A stretch of DNA of 64,000 nt from Escherichia phage JS10: sequence record EU863409; one strand, given 5' to 3'. Under the pieces are notes generated by a model. The model was not told where the DNA came from. It made no database searches and saw nothing but the letters and a program-made list of their open reading frames with translations. Within the stretch, counting starts at the first letter, position 1. Every line of letters begins with the position of its first letter. This document shows, in pieces, positions 1,400 through 38,855 of this stretch. Both the position numbers and the translations under genes were made by a program.

Positions 1400-3078
1400 T
1401 CTAACACCGTGAATCGCCCAACTTTCTTCATTTGAAGATGTTGGCCATAAGCTTGTGGGTCATGGTCTCGGTGAGAGATAATGAACACGTTCGTATCCTC
1501 AAGGCTATTCAAGATGGTTGCAATGCTCTTAACGCCTTCAGAATCCGTGGCACTATCAAAAACTTCATCAAGAATTAACGTGCTGATATTAACACCTGAT
1601 ACCTTAGAAGCAATATCACGCCATGTAAAAAGAAGTGCGATATCAATACGTGCTTTCTCACCCTGTGAAAATGAAGCATAACTAAAGTCTTCACGTCCAC
1701 GTGATTTAATCGTCTCATTGAATTCTTCGTCTAGGGTAAAGACGTAGTCCGCTTCCATAATCTTCAAATAAGAATTAATCTGCTTATTAAAGATAGGAAT
1801 GTATTTCTTAATAATGGAACCTTTAATACCAGTATCCTTCAACATTTCTGTCAGAATTCCACGATGATATTTTTCCATTACCAAGGACGATTTGGTAGAG
1901 ACGATTTTATCAAGCTCTGCTTGAAGCGCAGCAATCTCTTCGGCATTACTTACGAACTCAGCTGCTGCCTGGTCAATTAATACCTTAACCTTTTTGGCTT
2001 TCTCTACGGCAGTAATGGCTTGCTGCTTATGAGTAGCTATCTGAGATTTAATAGCCAACGCTTTATTGCGTTGTTCGGTTACTTGGTCTTTAATGAGCTT
2101 GAGCTCTTGGTATTGCTCATTAATCTTATCCAAAGATTTTTGAAGCTCAAAGTTTTTATCCTTAATTTTAGTAAGGATATTACCATGCTCTTCTAACCCT
2201 TGCATACACGTAGGGCAGTGACCACCAGTTTCGTATAACTTAACCACCTTTGTAAAGGTTGCCATATCATTTTTGATTGCAAATCCTTTATTACTCAGGT
2301 CACTCATGGAGTCGCTAGGGTCATCATCTACGATAACATTGAGTAATTCATCAGTCAGGGATTCTATGCTCGCCTTCGCAGTCCTGGCTTCTTTAACGAG
2401 CTCATCATACATTAATTGTAGGCGGGCGGCGTTCTCGCCGGATAATTTACGTTGACGTTCTTCGTTGTCATTATAAATTTTAATTTGTTGGGTAATAGAA
2501 TCTTGCTTAACGTCTATTACTTGGATTTGGCTATTAGTCTCACGAATTAAAGATTTGTTCAACTTATCCATATCCGCTAATACAGAAACCTCTAAGAGGT
2601 CTTCGACGAGTTTTCTTCTTGCAGGAGTGGATAGGCCCATAAAAGGGGTATATCCAGCTGTGCCGAGTACGACAATTTGTTTGAAGCTTGCATAGGACAT
2701 TCCGATAAGCTGTTCAAATTCCGCTTGGAAGTCTTTACTGCTGGCAGATTCATCAAGACGTTCACCGTCACAAGAGATTTCAAAAACGTTGGGTTTTTGC
2801 CCGCGTTTGATATAGTATTCTTTGCCATCATATTCCATCCACAGTTCGACCAAAAGGTCTTTCTTGTTACTTGAGTTAATCAACTGCCCTTTCTTAACAT
2901 CACGAAAAGGCTTACCGAACAGAGCAAATGTTACAGCTTCAAGGAATGTTGATTTCCCTGCACCATTTTTACCAGTGACTAAGGTCTTTTGGACCTTATC
3001 AAGTTGGATTGTAATAGGCTGCTGCCCTACCGACATAATATTTTTATACGTTACTTTTTTTAACTTAAAAGTCTTCAT
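1396..3078 (-). CDS. 46: recombination endonuclease ATPase subunit gp46 (SbcC/Rad50-like)
   Basis: Walker A GKNGAGKST near N-terminus, long coiled-coil middle, C-terminal signature/D-loop region; start set to internal ATG (MKTFKLKK) with AAGGA SD giving 560 aa. Confidence 0.9.
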   Translation of the reverse strand: MKTFKLKKVTYKNIMSVGQQPITIQLDKVQKTLVTGKNGAGKSTFLEAVTFALFGKPFRDVKKGQLINSSNKKDLLVELWMEYDGKEYYIKRGQKPNVFEISCDGERLDESASSKDFQAEFEQLIGMSYASFKQIVVLGTAGYTPFMGLSTPARRKLVEDLLEVSVLADMDKLNKSLIRETNSQIQVIDVKQDSITQQIKIYNDNEERQRKLSGENAARLQLMYDELVKEARTAKASIESLTDELLNVIVDDDPSDSMSDLSNKGFAIKNDMATFTKVVKLYETGGHCPTCMQGLEEHGNILTKIKDKNFELQKSLDKINEQYQELKLIKDQVTEQRNKALAIKSQIATHKQQAITAVEKAKKVKVLIDQAAAEFVSNAEEIAALQAELDKIVSTKSSLVMEKYHRGILTEMLKDTGIKGSIIKKYIPIFNKQINSYLKIMEADYVFTLDEEFNETIKSRGREDFSYASFSQGEKARIDIALLFTWRDIASKVSGVNISTLILDEVFDSATDSEGVKSIATILNSLEDTNVFIISHRDHDPQAYGQHLQMKKVGRFTVLE

Positions 3079-3328
3079 CGTTATAAGCATCCTTGATGCA
3101 TGATTCAGCCATATGAATTAATGTTTCTGGAGTATCATCTACCATTACATTAAAGCTAAATTCCACAGCCCAATCGGTAGCAACATAAACTTTAATAAGC
3201 TCGCCGGTATCACGAGTGCTCACGGCTTCAAACCAGAACTTAATTGTACTAGGTTGTCCATCATCATCAATAACTATACAGTCGTGTTCCAGTTCAAGTC
3301 CCGATTTTTTGAATTCATCTAAAGTCAT
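3065..3328 (-). CDS. 46.1-like hypothetical protein
   Basis: 87-aa acidic ORF between genes 47 and 46; ATGA overlap with gene 47 stop. Confidence 0.5.
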   Translation of the reverse strand: MTLDEFKKSGLELEHDCIVIDDDGQPSTIKFWFEAVSTRDTGELIKVYVATDWAVEFSFNVMVDDTPETLIHMAESCIKDAYNDEDF

Positions 3329-4553: not shown

Positions 4554-4715
4554 ACCAATTAATACCCCGTACAGAGGTTCATGAGAAGACCTGAACTTGA
4601 TAGGCTTATAGGTAATAGTACCTTCATTTTCCGCTTTAATACGAGCAGCTTCAAATTTAAGTATCATCTCATTTTTGTCAGATTTAATCTTATCAAAATC
4701 CATCGAATTCGTCAT
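4542..4715 (-). CDS. small hypothetical protein (57 aa)
   Basis: Unlisted ORF MTNSMDFDKIK...; AAGAGG SD 8 nt upstream; stop lies in loop of a terminator hairpin; weak support. Confidence 0.3.
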   Translation of the reverse strand: MTNSMDFDKIKSDKNEMILKFEAARIKAENEGTITYKPIKFRSSHEPLYGVLIGKGA

Positions 4716-4988
4716 TCATATAACCTCTTAAACTTTTTCGTATTCGTCATTCATAAGCTTAAAAATCCGGATGTTCATCTTTCATTAGCCACCTGTCCAC
4801 GTTATCATCGTTGCCACCATTTCTTAAGTTGGTGTGAATCCACCCAAACCTTGGCTACAGGCTCAATCCGAAAAATTTCATCGGAATATTGACCCACCAT
4901 TTTGTATTCGGTTTCAGTCTGCTTAATACAAATATTACCGTATGAGCGAAGTCTGAAGGCGGCTCCAATAAGAAGCCGTTTAAAGGGT

Positions 4989-5300
4989 TTATTTACTAGC
5001 GCCATTGATAATTTCCCAAATCTGTTTACGCGTAGTTTCCCACATAACTCTAACGATTTCGTCAGTAGTTGGTTGACGGTAAATACCACGTAATTTAATT
5101 ATAGCATATTTGTAAGCTTCGAAATTGTTTTCGAGAACAGCGCCCTGAGCATGTGTATTAAGACGCTTAATTTCACGGGCATTCTTTTTAAGAATTTTGG
5201 CAGCTTGGGAAGCGGCTTCTTTAGCATTATTCTCTTCTAAACGCTTCTGGGCTTCTTCAATTTGCTCTTCGGTCAATTGAGAAATGTCGGTGCTTTGCAT
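4989..5300 (-). CDS. hypothetical coiled-coil protein
   Basis: 103-aa charged helical ORF; AAGGAT SD; abuts upstream gene stop. Confidence 0.55.
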   Translation of the reverse strand: MQSTDISQLTEEQIEEAQKRLEENNAKEAASQAAKILKKNAREIKRLNTHAQGAVLENNFEAYKYAIIKLRGIYRQPTTDEIVRVMWETTRKQIWEIINGASK

Positions 5301-7059: not shown

Positions 7060-7259
7060 TATTTTTGTGCTAATGCACCTTTCCAACCTTCATACATCAT
7101 TGCGGCTGATATTAATATTGCTCCTGCGCATTTTGAATATTTGTTATTCCAAAACCAGTTTAGAAAAACTTCGTCATCAATACCTTGAGCTATCATATTT
7201 TCAAAGAATTGACGACGGGCTTCAGCAATTCGTTGTGATAATTTAGATTCAGGATTCAT
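7059..7259 (-). CDS. hypothetical protein
   Basis: 66-aa ORF; stop overlaps -35 element of downstream promoter. Confidence 0.45.
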   Translation of the reverse strand: MNPESKLSQRIAEARRQFFENMIAQGIDDEVFLNWFWNNKYSKCAGAILISAAMMYEGWKGALAQK

Positions 7260-7391
7260 TTAAATTTTCCAGTTGCCGTTTTCATCAATAAATTTAATCC
7301 AGTCATTTACTGACCACTTAGTCGTATCGCCTTTTGGAGCAACATTTAAGGTGTATAATCCTTGTTTAAAAAGCATACGTTTGATATTCAT
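7260..7391 (-). CDS. hypothetical small protein (43 aa)
   Basis: Internal ATG with GAGGAAAAT SD located 7 nt after stop of upstream gene. Confidence 0.35.
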   Translation of the reverse strand: MNIKRMLFKQGLYTLNVAPKGDTTKWSVNDWIKFIDENGNWKI

Positions 7392-15072: not shown

Positions 15073-15127
15073 GATAACCTCCAGTAGTTGATAGGTCTAT
15101 AGTATCATGTCTAATGGAGATGTAAAC
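15073..15127 (-). promoter_or_regulatory. PeSL-like promoter-stem-loop cassette
   Basis: core TTGATAGGTCTATAGTATCA; -35 GTTTAC; 9-bp inverted repeat arms (one mismatch), proximal arm includes GGAGG SD. Confidence 0.55.
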
Positions 15128-19892: not shown

Positions 19893-19949
19893 ACTGTTCT
19901 CCTCATTAGTTGATAGGTCTATAGTATCACGTTCCTAGAGGATGTAAAC
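19893..19949 (-). promoter_or_regulatory. PeSL-like promoter-stem-loop cassette
   Basis: core TTGATAGGTCTATAGTATCA; -35 GTTTAC (19944-19949); bulged inverted repeat. Confidence 0.55.
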
Positions 19950-24015: not shown

Positions 24016-24072
24016 TTTGTAATCTCCTGTAGTTGATAGGTCTATAGTACCACGTCTACAGGAGATGTAAAC
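24016..24072 (-). promoter_or_regulatory. PeSL-like promoter-stem-loop cassette (upstream of regB)
   Basis: -35 GTTTAC, 17-bp spacer, -10 TACTAT; perfect 9-bp arms CTCCTGTAG / CTACAGGAG (24024-24032 / 24056-24064). Confidence 0.6.
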
Positions 24073-26303: not shown

Positions 26304-26359
26304 TTTTAATCTCCTGTAGTTGATAGGTCTATAGTATCATGCCTACAGGAGAAGTAAAC
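26304..26359 (-). promoter_or_regulatory. PeSL-like promoter-stem-loop cassette (upstream of denV)
   Basis: Same architecture and arms as regB cassette; -35 GTTTAC 26354-26359. Confidence 0.6.
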
Positions 26360-30254: not shown

Positions 30255-31214
30255 TTATTTTTCGAAAGGACGAATTAAATGTTGGTTAGCCTTGAAACGA
30301 TTAACATAGTCTTCGCGACCCAGGGTGTTATACATATTAACCACAGCTTGGTAGTTTTCCCAGGCATACTCACGGAACCATCCAGAAGTAATGGAGGTAC
30401 AGACTTTTTCCAGAGCAACATGGAAGCTCACGGATGGAGAGATATTGAACTCATTAGGAACCTGCGAACGCTCTAGAGCAAGTACACATGCTTCTTCATA
30501 TACGCCAGCCAGTTTAATAGCTTCAGGCAAAGCTTCAAACTTCTCACGTGAGGTCATGACTTCAGAACCATCTTTCATATAAAAGGTATACGCTGGGCGT
30601 CCAGCCAATGCCACAGCTTCATGGATAGAGTCATGGTCTAATGTATAAATGGTATCATTAAAGAACGATGATTTGTTTACATCCAATTTAGGATGAGAAT
30701 AGCTCAACGTTTCTTTCTGGCGTTGCAGCATGATTTCTTGGAGCTCTTCATTCAAGGTTACACCTTTATTACGAAGATATTTGATGTGGGACATCGTCTT
30801 CAAAAAGAACGGGTTGTTCTTCAAATAACGATGGCTCATTTTGATAGCCAGACAGATATCAGGCGTGGCCCAATAGAAACCAGTAAGACGATCCTTTTTA
30901 ATATGATTTTCAGCATATTTCAGGAGACGATAACTTGAGGTGAAATCTTCGTCCTGAAGCTCACCGGTAATTTCTCGTACGTTAGTCAGAGCACGGACAA
31001 TATAAGCTTCAAAATAGGTTTCTTTACCATTGTACATACATTTAAAGGCCTGGACATCTGGATTATCCACAGGGACATGGGCGCCGAACATCCGGGCTTT
31101 AAATTGATTCCATGAGCCTTGGTCGGCAATAAAATCCCAATCAGAATTTTCAATATACTTACTTTCAATCAGACCAGCGTGGTGCAGTGCACGAGAACCA
31201 ATAACTAGCATCAT
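30255..31214 (-). CDS. hypothetical protein (319 aa), possible nucleotidyltransferase-like N-terminus
   Basis: N-terminal IGSRAL...SDWDF weakly resembles a G-S...D-x-D fold motif; otherwise unassigned. Confidence 0.5.
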   Translation of the reverse strand: MMLVIGSRALHHAGLIESKYIENSDWDFIADQGSWNQFKARMFGAHVPVDNPDVQAFKCMYNGKETYFEAYIVRALTNVREITGELQDEDFTSSYRLLKYAENHIKKDRLTGFYWATPDICLAIKMSHRYLKNNPFFLKTMSHIKYLRNKGVTLNEELQEIMLQRQKETLSYSHPKLDVNKSSFFNDTIYTLDHDSIHEAVALAGRPAYTFYMKDGSEVMTSREKFEALPEAIKLAGVYEEACVLALERSQVPNEFNISPSVSFHVALEKVCTSITSGWFREYAWENYQAVVNMYNTLGREDYVNRFKANQHLIRPFEK

Positions 31215-31241: not shown

Positions 31242-31394
31242 TTACTTCATATTTACCCAGTTCAGATTTTTTGCTTCAATACGCGTTGCGGCTAGATTAG
31301 CAGCCTCTAGTGAAGAAAATTGAACCACTTGGGAAGTATTCTGCCTTACGCCACCTTGTGGGTGAGTAACAAAAACAATAAGAACATTATACAT
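31242..31394 (-). CDS. hypothetical small protein (50 aa)
   Basis: Unlisted ORF MYNVLIVFVTHPQGG...; GAGGAAAA SD; shares 16-nt initiation region with gene 30255..31214. Confidence 0.35.
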   Translation of the reverse strand: MYNVLIVFVTHPQGGVRQNTSQVVQFSSLEAANLAATRIEAKNLNWVNMK

Positions 31395-31415
31395 AATATT
31401 TTCCTCAGAGTAAAC

Positions 31416-31664
31416 TTAAATTTCAGCAACGTAATCGTTATGCAATTCCCACATATTATCAGAATTATTCTTAACGATAGGAATTATCTCATTAGAGATT
31501 TCTTCTGCATAAGGGTCATTGATACAGTGAGCATCTTCAAAACGAACACCGTAATCAGACTTCTTATAGGCAAAGCCATAAATCTTTTTAAACTTAGCAC
31601 GACTAATTCGTACCGGCTCATCAGACTTATCAGACTTATCAGACAGCGGAGAGTAATACCACAT
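31416..31664 (-). CDS. hypothetical protein
   Basis: 82 aa with SDKSDKSD from a 9-bp tandem repeat; GAGGAG SD. Confidence 0.45.
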   Translation of the reverse strand: MWYYSPLSDKSDKSDEPVRISRAKFKKIYGFAYKKSDYGVRFEDAHCINDPYAEEISNEIIPIVKNNSDNMWELHNDYVAEI

Positions 31665-31708: not shown

Positions 31709-32038
31709 CTAGAGTTGTACATCACTTCTACAATATTCTAAAAATAATTTATCGTTGTCTACTGTATCCCAACGTCGCCAAGATGGATTCCAGACCAAAG
31801 CGTTGTCACCACAATCATTGAGCTTAAAATGGTCATAGTACATGGCTATGTGTCTAGTCTCGTCACCAGAGAACCCTAGTATAGGCTCGCCGTGGGTATG
31901 ATACATATGGTGATGCATTGAGAGGTCGCATTTATAAAACATCTCACGTTTACCACGAATGAACAAGAAAGCTTGTCCATTCATATAGAATTCTTTATCC
32001 GTTTTCAAAAGGTATTTGAATACTGAATCTTTATGCAT
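31709..32038 (-). CDS. hypothetical His-rich protein
   Basis: Start at ATG with AGGAGG SD; HHHMYHTHGE metal-binding-like stretch. Confidence 0.5.
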   Translation of the reverse strand: MHKDSVFKYLLKTDKEFYMNGQAFLFIRGKREMFYKCDLSMHHHMYHTHGEPILGFSGDETRHIAMYYDHFKLNDCGDNALVWNPSWRRWDTVDNDKLFLEYCRSDVQL

Positions 32039-32068
32039 AAGTCCTCCTACCACATCCGTGTGGTTAAA

Positions 32069-32296
32069 TTATTTTCCTAACGAAATACGAGTAGGTTTTT
32101 TGCCAAAGTATTCTTCATAAGAACCATCTAAACGACCTGCTTTAGACCGACAATATGAATCATACTTTTTGTAATAGGTCATCTCAGTATTATAACGTGG
32201 ATGTCTATCAGCCATAATAATACTTAATGGCCAACCTTTGGCATACTCGCGAAGACCGTTTATTTTACGAATGTATCTTTTCTTTAATTTTAGCAT
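32069..32296 (-). CDS. hypothetical basic protein
   Basis: 75-aa Arg/Lys/Tyr-rich ORF. Confidence 0.45.
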   Translation of the reverse strand: MLKLKKRYIRKINGLREYAKGWPLSIIMADRHPRYNTEMTYYKKYDSYCRSKAGRLDGSYEEYFGKKPTRISLGK

Positions 32297-32514
32297 GAGC
32301 TCGGGTACCAGATTTTACCATCGGAACGAGCAACGAAGGTGCGACCAGCTTCTTCGCCGTAACAAGAGCTATTCAGCCAATCTTCAAGACGAACTTCACC
32401 ATCGTAATCGTCTAACTCAACACCAAAACTTTGAGCAGAAGCCATATCTTTTACTTTCTTATACAATGCAGCCAGTTCAAGAGCAGCTTTTTCTAATTCA
32501 TTAATATCAGTCAT
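32290..32514 (-). CDS. small acidic protein, W-x-S-S-C C-terminal family (copy 5)
   Basis: 74 aa ending WYPSSC; last of five tandem paralogs. Confidence 0.5.
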   Translation of the reverse strand: MTDINELEKAALELAALYKKVKDMASAQSFGVELDDYDGEVRLEDWLNSSCYGEEAGRTFVARSDGKIWYPSSC

Positions 32515-32526
32515 TTTTTTTATTCC

Positions 32527-32736
32527 TTAGCAAGACATAGAGGAGCTAAACCAGAAACCTTCACCATCTGGGATACCGTAATCATCACGGACCCATTCGT
32601 AATCATCATATTCCGGACTAGAAGCCGGAATATATTCTTCGCCACCAGCGTGGAAGTGCTGACCTGTTTCGTCAGCCACGGACTGGCCTTTACGTACTAA
32701 TTCACGGATTTGTTTTTCAATTTCATCAATAGTCAT
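32527..32736 (-). CDS. small acidic protein, W-x-S-S-S-x-x-C family (copy 4)
   Basis: 69 aa ending WFSSSMSC. Confidence 0.5.
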   Translation of the reverse strand: MTIDEIEKQIRELVRKGQSVADETGQHFHAGGEEYIPASSPEYDDYEWVRDDYGIPDGEGFWFSSSMSC

Positions 32737-32745
32737 TTTATTACC

Positions 32746-32943
32746 TTAGCATTCGTAAGAGGAGGACACCCAAGAGGTACCACTAATAGTAATACAACCG
32801 TTATAAAGCGTGATATGTCGTTCTAGGTCACGGACACCATCAATATAGATATCAGCTTCTTCGCGTTCTTCTTTACAAATTTGAATAACGTTTTCAATTG
32901 CTGCAGCGGCAGTTCGGATTGCACAATCTAATTCACGAGACAT
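32746..32943 (-). CDS. small acidic protein, W-x-S-S-S-x-x-C family (copy 3)
   Basis: 65 aa ending WVSSSYEC. Confidence 0.5.
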   Translation of the reverse strand: MSRELDCAIRTAAAAIENVIQICKEEREEADIYIDGVRDLERHITLYNGCITISGTSWVSSSYEC

Positions 32944-32952
32944 AATATTTCC

Positions 32953-33234
32953 TTAACATTCAGAAGAAGAGGACACCCAACCACCATTTTCCAGGTCAGT
33001 TGTATAGTCATGAGTATTAACAATAGCCCATTCAGGATGACCATCTTCTTCCCAATGGGCAAGGTCAGCTTTCAAGGCACCAGGAGAATAATAGTCACCG
33101 CCCATACCGCGAGCAGGGTATATATTAAAATGAGTCTCATATTTGTCTGCAATTTCCTCGGCACGACGAATAGCTTCATGAATTTCTTTTACTGCGGCCA
33201 GAAGCTCTGGGTTGTTATGATTATCATTCATCAT
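32953..33234 (-). CDS. small acidic protein, W-x-S-S-S-x-x-C family (copy 2)
   Basis: 93 aa ending WVSSSSEC; shares IADKY...GGDYY block with copy 1. Confidence 0.5.
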   Translation of the reverse strand: MMNDNHNNPELLAAVKEIHEAIRRAEEIADKYETHFNIYPARGMGGDYYSPGALKADLAHWEEDGHPEWAIVNTHDYTTDLENGGWVSSSSEC

Positions 33235-33243
33235 AGCTTTTCC

Positions 33244-33534
33244 TTAGCACATTGCCGAAGAGGAGACCCAGGCACCAACTGTAACGACACCGTTTTCAAC
33301 TTCACCGCCATTGTTTTCAATTTCATCTTTAAACCACTGGGAGCATTCATAACCAACAGGGTAGTATGTACGTCCTGAGCCATAATCACCTGTTCCGAAT
33401 TGAATACCATACTTATCGGCAATAGCTTCACATTTGTGTTCGATGGTATCCACTTTATTCAGAAGAGCATAGATAGCCTTTTCTGCAGATTTCTCGTCGT
33501 TGTATTCAGGGATTTCAATTTCAATTTTATTCAT
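33244..33534 (-). CDS. small acidic protein, W-x-S-S-S-x-x-C family (copy 1)
   Basis: 96 aa ending WVSSSAMC; ATGA overlap with upstream membrane protein gene. Confidence 0.5.
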   Translation of the reverse strand: MNKIEIEIPEYNDEKSAEKAIYALLNKVDTIEHKCEAIADKYGIQFGTGDYGSGRTYYPVGYECSQWFKDEIENNGGEVENGVVTVGAWVSSSAMC

Positions 33535-33884
33535 GATTTACATTCCTTAATAAAGGTTTCAAGGTCATTACGGTTGGTTTGTTTTACATACTCATTATAA
33601 TTAGCCATCTCTAAAGCATATCTCTTACGGATGGGGGCATTCAAAGCATTTGTATGGCAAATATCATACACGAGAGGGATAAAATAAGCCACGACAGCCG
33701 GAGCGATTATCATATAGAAACCCATCTCAATAGGCATGACTCCTTCGATTGCAGCCATAACTGTGGTCATTACCAGACCAACCAGACCGCCGAGCATACC
33801 GGTGACAATTCCCATAAATAAGGAAATAGCAATATCATATTCAGCCAATTGATAAACATGTGATGAAAGACTAGGCCGCTCCAT
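33531..33884 (-). CDS. membrane protein with C-terminal FIKEC module
   Basis: 117 aa from internal ATG with AAGAGG SD; two hydrophobic helices; ends NDLETFIKECKS. Confidence 0.5.
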   Translation of the reverse strand: MERPSLSSHVYQLAEYDIAISLFMGIVTGMLGGLVGLVMTTVMAAIEGVMPIEMGFYMIIAPAVVAYFIPLVYDICHTNALNAPIRKRYALEMANYNEYVKQTNRNDLETFIKECKS

Positions 33885-34413
33885 TTTGAACCTCTTTAGC
33901 GTATTCACGGCATTCTTTAATAAAACGATTAAGTTTACGTTGCTGTTTACGACTCTCTGATGTGTATTCGTTGGCTAAAATAATAAGCTCATCTTTATCG
34001 TAGTTTTTGATATCCGAATAACTCGGACGGCGGTCGACCATACCAAATACATCCCCATTTTCTAGTGCCACATAACATACTAAATGATAATCATCATCTG
34101 CAACATTAATATGTACACAGTCAGTACTCTCGTTTAAAGAATATACTGAATATCTCACTCCAGCGAATTTAGCACTCTGTATACCCAATCCAAGGTCAAT
34201 AATTTCTAAAGCTTCTGCAAAAGAAAGGTCTTCAGCTAAAGCAAAGATAAAGGGTAATTTGGTAGTATATCCACGTCTACTTGTTCGACTTAAGAAATCA
34301 TTGGAATAACCTAGGTCTTGGCGAATTCTATAAAGAACAGTATTAGTTTCATGGGAAAGACCACTATGTTTAAACCAGTCTACATTTGATATAAGGTCGG
34401 TATATAAGCTCAT
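33871..34413 (-). CDS. hypothetical protein with FIKEC module
   Basis: 180 aa; ...RKLNRFIKECREYAKEVQNGAA at C-terminus. Confidence 0.5.
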   Translation of the reverse strand: MSLYTDLISNVDWFKHSGLSHETNTVLYRIRQDLGYSNDFLSRTSRRGYTTKLPFIFALAEDLSFAEALEIIDLGLGIQSAKFAGVRYSVYSLNESTDCVHINVADDDYHLVCYVALENGDVFGMVDRRPSYSDIKNYDKDELIILANEYTSESRKQQRKLNRFIKECREYAKEVQNGAA

Positions 34414-34461
34414 AATATTCTCCTCTCCTCCAAATAGGGAGACCGAAGTCTCCCGGTAACA

Positions 34462-35055
34462 TTACTTAAGTGAATTAATGTAGTCGTCGATATCGGCAGA
34501 AGTCGTATCCATTCCAACTTGTGGGCCTTTAAACGTTTCTACACGTAGCAGGGTATCTTCAATATCAATCTTAGTCAGTGCAGCGATTTCAACCACATCA
34601 TCGGCAGTAGCAATACCAAGGGCAGCCATATTACGAGTTTCACGGATGTACTCGAGCTTAACAGCCAGTTCCTGACGAGAGTCATCAAGTTCCTTGACCT
34701 TCAGTTTAATTTCATTACGCATTTCGATATAATCGTCAGCTTTCTTACGAAGTTGAGTGGCTGTACGACGATAAAGGAGGCCGAGTTTAGCATGTACCTG
34801 AACATCGGCGCCTTCGGCAATCAGTTTACGAATTTCGCGTTCTTTAGAAGCAGCCAGTTGGTCTTTTTCATTTGCCAATGCACGAATGCGTTTTTCTTCA
34901 TTCACAGACTTAACATGAGCAGTCTGGAGTTCGGTAATTTTATCAATCAGGGTAGAAGCAGCTTTAGTATACTGGTCTTCGATTGACAGGTTCTGAGTCA
35001 TTGCGGTACCCAGTTTAGAACGGATGAACTCAACAATTTTCTTTAAAGTATTCAT
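34462..35055 (-). CDS. coiled-coil protein, possibly PspA/IM30-like
   Basis: 197 aa almost entirely heptad-like helices; start at ATG with AAGGAAA SD after a GTTTAC-N18-TATAAT promoter; homology assignment tentative. Confidence 0.5.
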
Positions 35056-35128
35056 AGTATTTCCTTCAGTCGGTTGGTATTTTGTAATCCATGAGGACAT
35101 TATACCCTGTCCTCTGAGGGTTGTAAAC
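35056..35128 (-). promoter_or_regulatory. sigma70-like early promoter with stem-loop over -10
   Basis: -35 GTTTAC (35123-35128), 18-bp spacer, -10 TATAAT (35099-35104) inside hairpin GAGGACA-N7-TGTCCTC. Confidence 0.5.
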
Positions 35129-35132
35129 ATTT

Positions 35133-35531
35133 TTATTTCATTTTGGCGAGGCAGATTTCATTGGCTTCCCATTGAGCTTGCTTAATAATAGCTTTGGATA
35201 CAGGAACCTTTTGACCATAAGTTTTTGACGTTGAGAGAACAATATATTTGTTTGCCTCATTATGCCAACCTAGTGATTTTTCACCATGACTACCTTTAAC
35301 CACAGCTGACACCTCAACAGAGCAACCACCATCAGAAATCTTGGTTTCTACAATCCATTCATTTCTCTCGGCAGCTTCAATTTCCGATCTCCTTTTTTCT
35401 TCATACATGGCGGCCCAATCAGTTTTTGCCAAGCTGAAAGTAAGAGCTTTCTCTAATTCTTTGGCAGCTTTTTGTTGTTCAGGCGTTAATGAATTGTACA
35501 ACTCTTGCATTTCTTTATCTTCGATATTCAT
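35133..35531 (-). CDS. hypothetical protein (132 aa)
   Basis: Start at ATG with GTGAAGGAG SD after PeSL-like cassette. Confidence 0.5.
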
Positions 35532-35595
35532 TATGCTCTCCTTCACTCCGTTGTTTTGATAGGTCTATAGTATCATATTCTACGAAAGAGTAAAC
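35532..35595 (-). promoter_or_regulatory. PeSL-like promoter cassette
   Basis: core TTGATAGGTCTATAGTATCA; -35 GTTTAC (35590-35595); hairpin degenerate. Confidence 0.5.
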
Positions 35596-35618
35596 ATCTT
35601 TTTTAAACTTTTAGAAAC

Positions 35619-35646
35619 AAAAAAGGCCCAACCTTTCGGAAGGGCC
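35619..35646 (-). terminator. intrinsic terminator
   Basis: GGCCC...GAAA...GGGCC hairpin plus U6; identical sequence repeated at 36242..36270. Confidence 0.55.
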
Positions 35647-35651
35647 TCGAA

Positions 35652-36206
35652 TCAGTTCTTGTAGAACCGGAATGGGTTCACGTGGAAGGCTAACATAGCT
35701 TTAGGGATTTTACGAGACAAAAGGCTCTTAAGCTTCCAGCCACAGTAAACGCGAAGGTAAAATGTGATTCCGCCGACCTTAAGATAAGGAACTGAAGCAA
35801 ATACACCCCAGGCATCATCATTCCACATCCACAACCAACCATGGTGGGCTTTATCAGGAGAACCTGATTCTACGTCAGGATTACCACGATAATGGAATTC
35901 CGAGCTACAATCACGGCCTAGTTTATGATAAGCAAAGTTATAAGCTTTATTTCGCCATAGCCAAGCTACTCTCTGGAGATAAACACCGCCAGGCATTTTC
36001 CTGATTTTAGCCCAACGTTTAATATGACCTTTATCGCCGTCAATTGGATTATCGTATGTCATCATCCAATCAAAACCATATGGCAATTTACCAGTCTTTT
36101 TATTATGAAAAGGAACCACAAAAGGCGCAAGGATAACGGCTAGAACCATAGAGATAAAATCTAGTGGGACCAACAGAATCCAACTCAAATATTTTAAAAG
36201 TTTCAT
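35652..36206 (-). CDS. membrane-anchored protein (184 aa), late-promoter driven
   Basis: N-terminal signal-anchor helix; TATAAATA 27 nt upstream; flanked by identical terminator hairpins. Confidence 0.5.
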   Translation of the reverse strand: MKLLKYLSWILLVPLDFISMVLAVILAPFVVPFHNKKTGKLPYGFDWMMTYDNPIDGDKGHIKRWAKIRKMPGGVYLQRVAWLWRNKAYNFAYHKLGRDCSSEFHYRGNPDVESGSPDKAHHGWLWMWNDDAWGVFASVPYLKVGGITFYLRVYCGWKLKSLLSRKIPKAMLAFHVNPFRFYKN

Positions 36207-36232: not shown

Positions 36233-36240
36233 TATTTATA
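36233..36240 (-). promoter_or_regulatory. T4-type late promoter (TATAAATA)
   Basis: Exact TATAAATA 27 nt upstream of gene 35652..36206, just downstream of a terminator. Confidence 0.5.
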
Positions 36241-36241
36241 C

Positions 36242-36270
36242 AAAAAAGGCCCAACCTTTCGGAAGGGCCT
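36242..36270 (-). terminator. intrinsic terminator after tRNA/sRNA cluster
   Basis: Same 29-bp hairpin plus U6 as at 35619..35646. Confidence 0.55.
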
Positions 36271-36439: not shown

Positions 36440-36515
36440 TGGTCGAGACAGTAGGGATCGAACCTACGACCTACGGTTTAGAAGACCGTTGCTCTTCCTT
36501 CTGAGCTATGCCTCG
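36440..36515 (-). tRNA. tRNA-Arg (anticodon UCU)
   Basis: 76-nt cloverleaf: anticodon stem ACGGT/ACCGT with loop CTTCTAA, T-arm GTAGG-TTCGATC-CCTAC, encoded CCA; unusual C1-G72 acceptor start. Confidence 0.65.
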
Positions 36516-36519
36516 TATT

Positions 36520-36594
36520 TGGCGGACATGCATGGATTCGAACCATGGACCAATTGATTAACAGTCAACTGCTCTACCACTGAGCTACACATCC
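36520..36594 (-). tRNA. tRNA-Asn (anticodon GUU)
   Basis: 75-nt cloverleaf: D-arm TAGCTCAGTGGTAGAGC, anticodon loop CTGTTAA, T-arm CATGG-TTCGAAT-CCATG, encoded CCA. Confidence 0.75.
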
Positions 36595-36598
36595 AAAT

Positions 36599-36672
36599 TG
36601 GTGGCCCTGGGTGGAATCGAACCACCATCCAGCGATTATGAGTCGCTCGCTTGACCGTCCAGCTACAGGGCC
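36599..36672 (-). tRNA. tRNA-Met/Ile2 (anticodon CAU)
   Basis: 74-nt cloverleaf: acceptor GGCCCTG/CAGGGCC, anticodon stem AGCGA/TCGCT with loop CTCATAA, T-arm GGTGG-TTCGATT-CCACC, encoded CCA. Confidence 0.75.
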
Positions 36673-38424: not shown

Positions 38425-38490
38425 TTTATTCTCCAATCACTCATTTGTTTTGATAGGGCTATAGTATCATCACTAAAGCCCGTTGTAAAC
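38425..38490 (-). promoter_or_regulatory. PeSL-like promoter-stem-loop cassette (covarying stem)
   Basis: core GATAGGGCTATAGTATCA with stem GGGCTATAG / CTAAAGCCC; -35 GTTTAC. Confidence 0.55.
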
Positions 38491-38786: not shown

Positions 38787-38855
38787 TTTTTTGTTTCCGT
38801 TAGGTTGGGTTTGTTTTGATAGGTCTATAGTATCATGCCTATAGACCTTGTAAAC
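38787..38855 (-). promoter_or_regulatory. PeSL-like promoter-stem-loop cassette
   Basis: -35 GTTTAC (38850-38855), 17-bp spacer, -10 TACTAT; perfect 10-bp stem 38821-38830 / 38839-38848. Confidence 0.6.

Follow-up and report, generated by a model that had tools for sequence, protein, structure and literature searches.

A possible two-module arrangement of the early genes between lysozyme gene e and the tRNA genes of Escherichia phage JS10

Do ten small genes packed side by side on one strand of a T4-like phage form a single functional unit? The question is raised by the block at positions 31709-35128 of the stretch analysed here, 64,000 nucleotides (nt) of Escherichia phage JS10 (sequence record EU863409), from now on called the window. 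The JS10 stretch belongs to Dhakavirus, and over this block it shows 96% nucleotide identity to phage JS98. The block is part of the interval that separates the lysozyme gene e from the tRNA genes (three tRNAs at 36440..36672), which counts among the variable regions of T4-like genomes; such regions are known for shuffling (PMC2839356). A first-pass annotation, made from the letters alone, had described it as one dedicated module behind one early promoter, and all ten open reading frames (ORFs) were found on the minus strand where it had placed them. In the public records the proteins are EpJS10_0120-0129 (nine of the ten looked up, from the block and its downstream neighbour, were identical), with all the genes labelled 'hypothetical'. 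The operon layout is ordinary for T4-like variable regions.

The answer that we favour, with a probability of about 50%, is that the block consists of early genes of a variable region, driven by promoter-early stem-loop (PeSL) cassettes, in which two conserved modules stand end to end together with some filler genes. Module A, from 35128 to 33531, is the JS10 version of T4 e.6-e.5-e.3. Module B, from 33534 to 32290 plus 31214 to 30255, is formed by the genes of five small acidic alpha/beta proteins and of one protein of 319 amino acids (aa). The paralogue array belongs with this DUF7277-DUF7275 gene and not with e.6, and the most useful new point is that the partner gene of the array is located outside the coordinates given in the first-pass annotation. 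The genes are as follows.

34462..35055, minus strand, e.6 orthologue, 197 aa, 74% identity to T4 e.6
33871..34413, minus strand, 180-aa soluble protein in the e.5 position (PHROG 8788)
33531..33884, minus strand, 117-aa two-helix membrane protein with hydrophobic segments, homologue of T4 e.3 (PHROG 2330; blastp E = 2e-9)
33244..33534, minus strand, small-family member, 96 aa, ends GAWVSSSAMC (PHROG 899)
32953..33234, minus strand, small-family member, 93 aa, ends GGWVSSSSEC (PHROG 899), the member whose structure was modelled
32746..32943, minus strand, divergent small-family member, 65 aa, ends SWVSSSYEC (PHROG 4882)
32527..32736, minus strand, small-family member, 69 aa, ends FWFSSSMSC (PHROG 899)
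32290..32514, minus strand, 74-aa small-family member, two-motif subtype, with DWLNSSCYGE ... IWYPSSC (PHROG 899)
32069..32296, minus strand, basic 75-aa protein (PHROG 7065)
31709..32038, minus strand, His-rich 109-aa protein with 8 His (PHROG 9796)
31416..31664, minus strand, 82-aa protein like RB69 ORF135c, between the paralogue array and the 319-aa gene (PHROG 3723)
30255..31214, minus strand, 319-aa DUF7277-DUF7275 protein (Pfam; PHROG 2141), downstream of the block

The evidence that carries this division is the company kept by the 319-aa gene. All 12 GenBank loci with a homologue have small-family genes alongside. We also analysed 80 IMG/VR loci selected by the sole criterion of containing a DUF7275 homologue, with neighbourhoods of 4 kb. 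Between one and six small-family members were found within that distance of the 319-aa homologue in 73 of the 80, nearly all of them (192/194) upstream and on the same strand, and no further gene family was common to more than 40% of the loci. The small genes are followed directly by the 319-aa homologue in Serratia phage X20, Aeromonas phages 31 and phiAS4, CC2, Klebsiella phage F48 and PhAPEC2. The pairing was found outside the T4-like phages as well, in Phapecoctavirus ESCO13, Pseudomonas phiPsa397 (Otagovirus) and Stenotrophomonas Mendera (Menderavirus), and also in Acinetobacter phage Stupor (Lazarusvirus); e.6 is not among the families common to the non-T4-like loci. The 319-aa family is essentially phage-only: it appears in 732 phage records, and the genomes of 185,579 bacterial and archaeal species yielded seven loci, all on contigs of metagenome-assembled genomes and four of them with small-family genes upstream. 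Array copy number varies widely among lineages, up to six in the IMG/VR loci, and Klebsiella phage F48 has at least five small-family members (locus 1434..3031) before its 320-aa partner gene.

This distribution bears directly on the view that all ten genes are one dedicated, co-functioning membrane-directed or host-interaction operon. The single strand, the tight packing and the lack of a canonical terminator between the genes are in its favour, and the order e.6, e.5-like, e.3-like, small family is identical in JS10, PhAPEC2, X20 and Klebsiella F48. However, Aeromonas phages 31 and phiAS4 have the array plus its 319-aa partner next to nrdD, about 2.7 kb from e.6 and with nrd genes in between; the pair is present in the Phapecoctavirus, Otagovirus, Menderavirus and Lazarusvirus loci, where e.6 is not among the shared families; and T4, in the part of the e-tRNA interval that was examined, keeps e.6-e.3 but has no small family and no 319-aa gene. 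The numbers of phage records also differ, 1109 for e.6 versus 732 for the 319-aa gene. Because the paralogue array travels with the downstream 319-aa gene instead of with e.6, the one-module view goes too far, and we consider a single dedicated operon very unlikely.

The five paralogues ending in W-x-S-S-S-x-x-C that had been noticed in the letters are real, four of them belonging to PHROG 899 and one to PHROG 4882. They are 24-34% identical to each other and are old duplicates. Their description as 'diversified' is unproven; the orthologues are under strong purifying, not diversifying, selection. A profile of the family run against 1.8 billion representative proteins, with clustering at 50% identity, gave 186 clusters, nearly all of 65-140 aa and acidic (median isoelectric point 4.45), and the family is phage-only. 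The giant proteins ranked at the top of this search (P0095, 4728 aa) were discarded as spurious, their scores being sums of weak matches, 8-10 bits each, to 'AEDADAIADST..GGDY' repeats. The common layout is a helix, the motif 'IADE.G..F.F..YGMGGTYYP', an acidic Trp-rich linker and the tail 'G-W-x-S-S-S-x-x-C', with the Cys exactly at the C-terminus in 169/183 members and in 186/194 of a second set. This tail is written with every one of the six Ser codons, with both Cys codons and in three different stop contexts. With such codon usage the constraint acts on the protein, and we rejected a signal at the RNA level (for example anti-Shine-Dalgarno pairing) because of this diversity of codons and stop contexts.

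The model of the 93-aa member is a confident one (predicted local distance difference test, pLDDT, 92.3; predicted template modelling score 0.80). It has a helix, a beta-hairpin, a second helix and a C-terminal strand; this strand, made by WVSSS, is the third of a small sheet, and order is lower in the three residues that end the chain. No significant PDB match was found for this fold, and a direct search of the small protein against PDB sequences was empty. We also considered internal head proteins with a capsid-targeting leader and set this idea aside, as there is no consistent L-x-E leader and the genes are behind early promoters. The two-motif subtype, represented in JS10 by the 74-aa member, was found in 33 of the 80 IMG/VR loci and also in X20, Aeromonas phage 31, phiAS4, CC2 and ESCO13. 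Among close relatives, KIT01 has no 65-aa member, fDHCT2 and KIT01 carry a membrane-protein allele that is 59-60% identical, and fDHCT2 has in addition a 58% identical allele of the 69-aa member; such allele swaps are the mosaic exchange expected in these variable regions (PMC2839356, PMC4122927). In the JS98 record no gene is annotated for the 69-aa member's orthologue (locus coordinates 7120..7335), which is nonetheless 99% identical and shows purifying selection.

Could the small acidic proteins act alone, for example by serving as decoys or sponges for proteins or defences of the host or by inhibiting them, the adjacency of the 319-aa gene being just inherited order? They are small, acidic, early and multicopy, their copy number differs between close relatives, and one family member has no 319-aa gene nearby. 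Yet the gene order is kept across phage groups that have no other neighbourhood gene in common, and inheritance alone is hard to invoke because this order persists in regions known for shuffling (PMC2839356). PADLOC, too, gave 0 matches among the small proteins. We judge independent action of these proteins improbable.

The member of the family found without its partner is a 77-aa protein (...AWISSSQMC; locus 3013..3246) of the Erwinia jumbo phage Hallingskeid (366 kb), encoded directly after polynucleotide kinase (Pnk) and the RNA ligase RnlA. In CC2 the small genes and the 319-aa gene are located about 3 kb downstream of rnlA. A link of the small family to RNA repair is possible.

At the N-terminus of the 319-aa protein there is a sequence IGSRAL...(15)...DWDF, in which G-S...D-x-D forms a pattern of the kind typical of nucleotidyltransferase folds, and the family alignment has invariant DHD..H, EE, ER and KVCTSITSGWFR stretches. 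A putative enzyme of this kind would recognise or modify the conserved tail of the small proteins, and their variable middle may give each paralogue its own target. Nucleotidylation, decarboxylation or conjugation are the candidate actions, which would turn the small proteins into differently targeted effectors. Such a one-enzyme, many-partners arrangement, with the tail-tagged small proteins as substrates or adaptors, fits the strict pairing, the exposed conserved tail, the variable middle, the presence of several paralogues per enzyme and the purifying selection on each orthologue. For Module B we regard this arrangement as the likeliest of the models considered, though a tentative one.

In another conceivable relationship the 319-aa enzyme would be toxic and the small proteins would inhibit or regulate it in the manner of antitoxins, on the model of the MenT and AbiEii nucleotidyltransferase toxin-antitoxin pairs. 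The 319-aa protein has the G-S...D-x-D residue pattern, but no Pfam, NCBIfam or PADLOC profile of a nucleotidyltransferase or toxin family matched it. Regulation of a toxin seems to us an unlikely role for the array.

Clusters with one enzyme and many substrates are known from other systems, such as the precursor arrays of ribosomally synthesized and post-translationally modified peptides (RiPPs; for example the prochlorosins with ProcM) and GlnD with PII. In some lanthipeptides a Ser/Cys pair forms a C-terminal aminovinyl-cysteine. Module B is similar to the RiPP arrays in having several diverged small genes with a common recognition segment and a single conserved putative enzyme alongside, and by analogy the S-x-x-C-COOH ending of the small family resembles the Ser/Cys pair of aminovinyl-cysteine. 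Unlike RiPP precursors, however, the small proteins are modelled as folded domains of 65-96 aa and not as leader-core peptides, and no RiPP modifying-enzyme family was detected among the proteins scanned, the 319-aa protein matching DUF7277 and DUF7275 only.

Module A was more easily connected to T4. The first-pass annotation could assign none of the genes to T4, but three have T4 counterparts: e.6, e.3 and, by its tail, e.5. The T4 gene order e.6, e.5, e.3 is matched in JS10, and the 117-aa protein, with two hydrophobic segments, matches T4 e.3 over its full length. The likeness of the 180-aa protein to T4 e.5 is limited to the C-terminal tail RFIKECREYAK. T4 also differs in having two membrane proteins where JS10 has one, and in the absence of both the small-family array and the 319-aa gene from the region examined. 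The e.6/e.5/e.4/e.3 genes of T4 are of unassigned function; they resemble the JS10 genes in order, in the 74% e.6 identity, in the e.3 match and in the F-[IV]-K-E-C-R tail.

This tail is what the earlier annotation had called a FIKEC module, and it turned out to be real and wider than claimed. In the six-frame translation the pattern F[ILV][KR][ED]C occurs just twice, in the adjacent 180-aa and 117-aa genes, and corresponds to a C-terminal tail F-[IV]-K-E-C-R (the 117-aa protein ends TFIKECKS). In T4, e.5 ends ...KFVKECREYVK, e.4 ...KFVKESRCKS and e.3 ...EFVIDCRKIK. Related tails (FVKMCR, FIKHCR, FVDYCRR, FVNYC) are found after e.6 in PhAPEC2, X20, Klebsiella F48, Aeromonas 31, phiAS4 and CC2. 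Over eight lineages the protein in the e.5 position carries the tail even where the rest of it is unrelated, and in the loci examined the protein after e.6 always ends F-[IV]-x-x-C-R. One or two small two-helix membrane proteins, nearly all with a related tail, come next in those of the examined loci that belong to Tevenvirinae and Marfavirus. Both FIKEC proteins of JS10 had been taken for membrane proteins; this is correct for the 117-aa protein, but no membrane segment is predicted in the 180-aa one. The explanation of the motif as a by-product of the downstream Shine-Dalgarno sequence accounts at most for the K-E codons of the 117-aa gene, and fails for the F, I/V, C and R positions, for the 180-aa gene and for the Aeromonas tails. 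Since the tail is conserved on otherwise different proteins that always follow e.6, it is best explained as a shared docking peptide, which may dock the partner proteins onto e.6.

The e.6 protein itself is highly conserved: mean column identity is 67% across 31 diverse members, the ratio of non-synonymous to synonymous substitutions (dN/dS) is about 0.01, and 1109 phage records contain it. It had been suspected of being PspA-like, a guess that found some backing at the level of the fold and none at that of sequence profiles. In its all-helical AlphaFold2 model (mean pLDDT 74.5) residues 3-18, 25-80 and 86-145 form helices, and short ones follow at the C-terminal end. Foldseek with this model against 350,542 PDB chains placed Vipp1/PspA in the top eight positions (E 4e-3 to 7e-2), followed by the archaeal ESCRT-III protein CdvB2. 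With PspA, Vipp1 (IM30) and ESCRT-III proteins it has in common the size (197 aa versus about 220) and, in the model, an amphipathic N-terminal helix, an acidic E-D motif, two hairpin helices of ~55-60 residues and shorter C-terminal helices. The hydrophobic moment of the N-terminal helix, 1.66, was matched by 0.9% of shuffles. The presence of small membrane proteins after the e.6 gene also recalls pspA with pspB and pspC. The match of e.6 to the BAR-domain scaffolds (SNX5, I-BAR, F-BAR) is of the kind given by any long helical bundle, with 6-12% identity to eukaryotic dimeric three-helix bundles. A membrane-scaffold fold is plausible from the model, and at the inner membrane e.6 could act as a scaffold of the PspA/ESCRT-III or BAR type; homology to PspA is unproven. 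Homologues of e.6 are called 'Host specificity protein' in UniRef and several GenBank records, a name behind which we found neither evidence nor a paper.

The alternative is that e.6 is a generic coiled-coil protein with no functional relation to PspA or ESCRT-III and no membrane role, and this must be taken as a serious possibility, somewhat below an even chance. It would agree with the lack of any match to Pfam PF04012 (PspA_IM30) or Snf7 at E up to 10 in all 31 e.6 members, and with searches of the e.6 sequence and the e.6 profile against PDB sequences that gave nothing, PspA/Vipp1 included. It would not account for the first place of Vipp1/PspA in Foldseek, the amphipathic N-terminal helix or the small membrane proteins after e.6 in the Tevenvirinae and Marfavirus loci. 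An hhalign comparison with PspA/Vipp1 aligned the two N-termini in register, residues 1-60 on 1-60 (P = 0.005), with the e.6 'EDQ' weakly placed opposite the PspA 'EDP'. This test is a weak one because the PspA profile was shallow (10 sequences, mostly enterobacterial).

Several results weigh against the two-module reading or against the roles proposed for its parts. For e.6 they include, besides the failed PF04012 and PDB-sequence searches, the low probability (6.7%) of the hhalign alignment with the shallow profile, and the docking of the tail onto e.6 is purely our inference. In 7 of the 80 IMG/VR loci the profile found no small-family match; four loci (the Enterobacter phage CC31 contig L041, and L072, L093 and L098) have a full 319-aa homologue, but neither the profile nor the tail pattern revealed a small-family gene within 4 kb of it. 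Hallingskeid has no DUF7275/319-aa homologue within 3 kb of its family member. The view of the 319-aa protein as a candidate enzyme comes from patterns of conserved residues alone: Pfam, NCBIfam and PADLOC searches, and searches of PDB sequences with the protein and with its profile, gave nothing beyond DUF7277 and DUF7275, and we dropped the idea of a tRNA nucleotidyltransferase because hhalign of the family against the E. coli CCA-adding enzyme found nothing. Nothing relevant came out of literature searches on e.6, on PspA or ESCRT-III proteins encoded by phages, on the tail motifs, on DUF7275 and DUF7277 or on the PHROG numbers. The more ambitious joint proposal, that Module B is an undescribed two-part system widespread in large lytic phages with an enzyme acting on or through the Cys-ended tail, and that e.6 is a viral member of the PspA/ESCRT-III superfamily of membrane-remodelling proteins with tail-docked partners, is one that we put well below even odds.

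The remaining part of the favoured reading, the control of the block by PeSL cassettes, depends on the following elements.

35093..35128, minus strand, early promoter of e.6: GTTTAC at 35128..35123, 18-nt spacer, TATAAT at 35104..35099
34437..34454, minus strand, hairpin GGGAGAC-TTCG-GTCTCCC of the C(UUCG)G type, after e.6 and directly before the Shine-Dalgarno of the next gene
31386..31415, minus strand, second GTTTAC-N18-TATAAT early promoter, ~170 nt upstream of the 319-aa gene
35567..35648, minus strand, upstream cassette of the PeSL kind: terminator stem at 35648..35623 plus TTTTTTG, then GTTTAC...TACTAT (35595..35567)
38827..38855, 38461..38490, 35567..35595, 26331..26359, 24044..24072, 19921..19949 and 15099..15127, minus strand, copies of a recurring promoter cassette

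The promoter first noticed before e.6 is present and scores 11/12 against the consensus for sigma-70. Five GTTTAC-N16-19-TATAAT sites exist in the window, all on the minus strand, versus 0.06 expected, and the position of the e.6 promoter is kept in T4, Serratia phage X20 and PhAPEC2. An inverted repeat GAGGACA-N8-TGTCCTC (35114..35093) encloses its -10 box, with compensatory changes in PhAPEC2 and X20. A stem-loop over the -10 box is one described class of PeSL cassette (Arbiol and colleagues, PMC2839356), and at e.6 we find a consensus-like sigma-70 early promoter together with a stem-loop overlapping the -10 box. The JS10 elements are similar to the described cassettes (PMC2839356, PMC4122927) in having a strong sigma-70-like early promoter together with a stem-loop before genes of a variable region, and in that identical copies flank an indel versus JS98; no difference was found. 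PeSL-like sequences in JS98 had already been mentioned (PMC2839356). The recurring cassette, GTTTAC...(GGTCTATAG)...GATACTATAGACCTATCAA, has an inverted repeat around its TACTAT -10 box and at least seven near-identical copies in the window.

Given the further promoters at 35595..35567 and 31415..31386, the unit originally delimited is one stretch of a longer multi-promoter early array. By its sequence, the transcription unit probably begins one gene further up, at the 35648..35567 terminator-promoter cassette. The original statement that no terminators intervene stands in that no canonical intrinsic terminator was found from 35623 down to about 27000, but it overlooked a conserved hairpin after e.6. 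In JS10 this hairpin has a 7-bp stem, a UUCG loop and the tail TATTTGGAG with no U-run, so that it lacks the combination of G+C-rich stem and U-run of a rho-independent terminator, and a simple terminator scan made no call. The PhAPEC2 equivalent has a TTTTGG tail and is annotated as a terminator by ARNold. Nine lineages have a hairpin at this spot with different stems, such as GGGGC/GCCCC in T4, AGAGGGC/GCCCTCT in X20 and GGGCCTC/GAGGCCC in Aeromonas phage 31, indicating a selected RNA structure. As the U-run is missing in JS10, we read it as a likely attenuator or stabiliser of the RNA 3' end.

Upstream, identical 31-nt terminator copies at 35617..35647 and 36240..36270 (AGGCCC-TTCCGAAAGGTT-GGGCCT, then a T-run on the minus strand) flank a 184-aa DUF7338 gene (35652..36206). 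At this spot JS10, unlike JS98, has no e.8 or gp135, a difference with the look of an indel that arose when PeSL cassettes recombined. Between this cassette and the e.6 promoter there is one more gene:

35133..35531, minus strand, 132-aa gene (PHROG 8232; dN/dS 0.12-0.21)

It is probably co-transcribed with e.6 and may be part of Module A. Serratia phage X20 has a homologue in the same place before e.6 (4642..5037 of the X20 locus), and T4 has there the unrelated e.7.

Regarding the genes themselves, the start codon of e.6 is at 35055, behind the Shine-Dalgarno GAAGGAA; a longer ORF of 222 aa from 35130 is an artefact, as the homologues are 197 aa long and the Shine-Dalgarno fits 35055. Of the junctions across the ten genes, one is an ATGA overlap and two others overlap by 14 and 7 nt; four have spacers of 9-12 nt, and the remaining two have longer ones, of 48 and 30 nt, each containing a hairpin. 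Compared with five Dhakavirus relatives, dN/dS of the ten genes is 0.00-0.41, mostly 0.26 or less, so that all of them are under purifying selection and code for real, constrained, expressed proteins. Pfam, NCBIfam and PADLOC gave no informative match for any of the ten; in PADLOC, which contains defence models only, nothing was significant and the best E was 0.009, for the membrane protein. The homologues of the basic 75-aa and the 109-aa proteins are outside the families common to the compared loci, for which reason both look like lineage-restricted fillers. The ATG of a 50-aa ORF at 31242..31394 falls within the spacer of the promoter at 31415..31386; as phages C6, KIT01 and IME08 lack this ORF, it is a doubtful gene.

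The link between the Cys-ended family and DUF7275 turns scattered 'hypothetical proteins' into a defined two-component unit that spans T4-like phages, myoviruses of ~100 kb and ~150 kb and jumbo phages, and that cellular genomes almost entirely lack. Which genes to co-express follows from the pairing, and which residues to mutate from the tail. As to Module A, e.6 is among the most conserved T4-type early genes of unassigned role, and a scaffold with docked membrane partners would, if true, provide a testable idea of how the phage manages the inner membrane early in infection.

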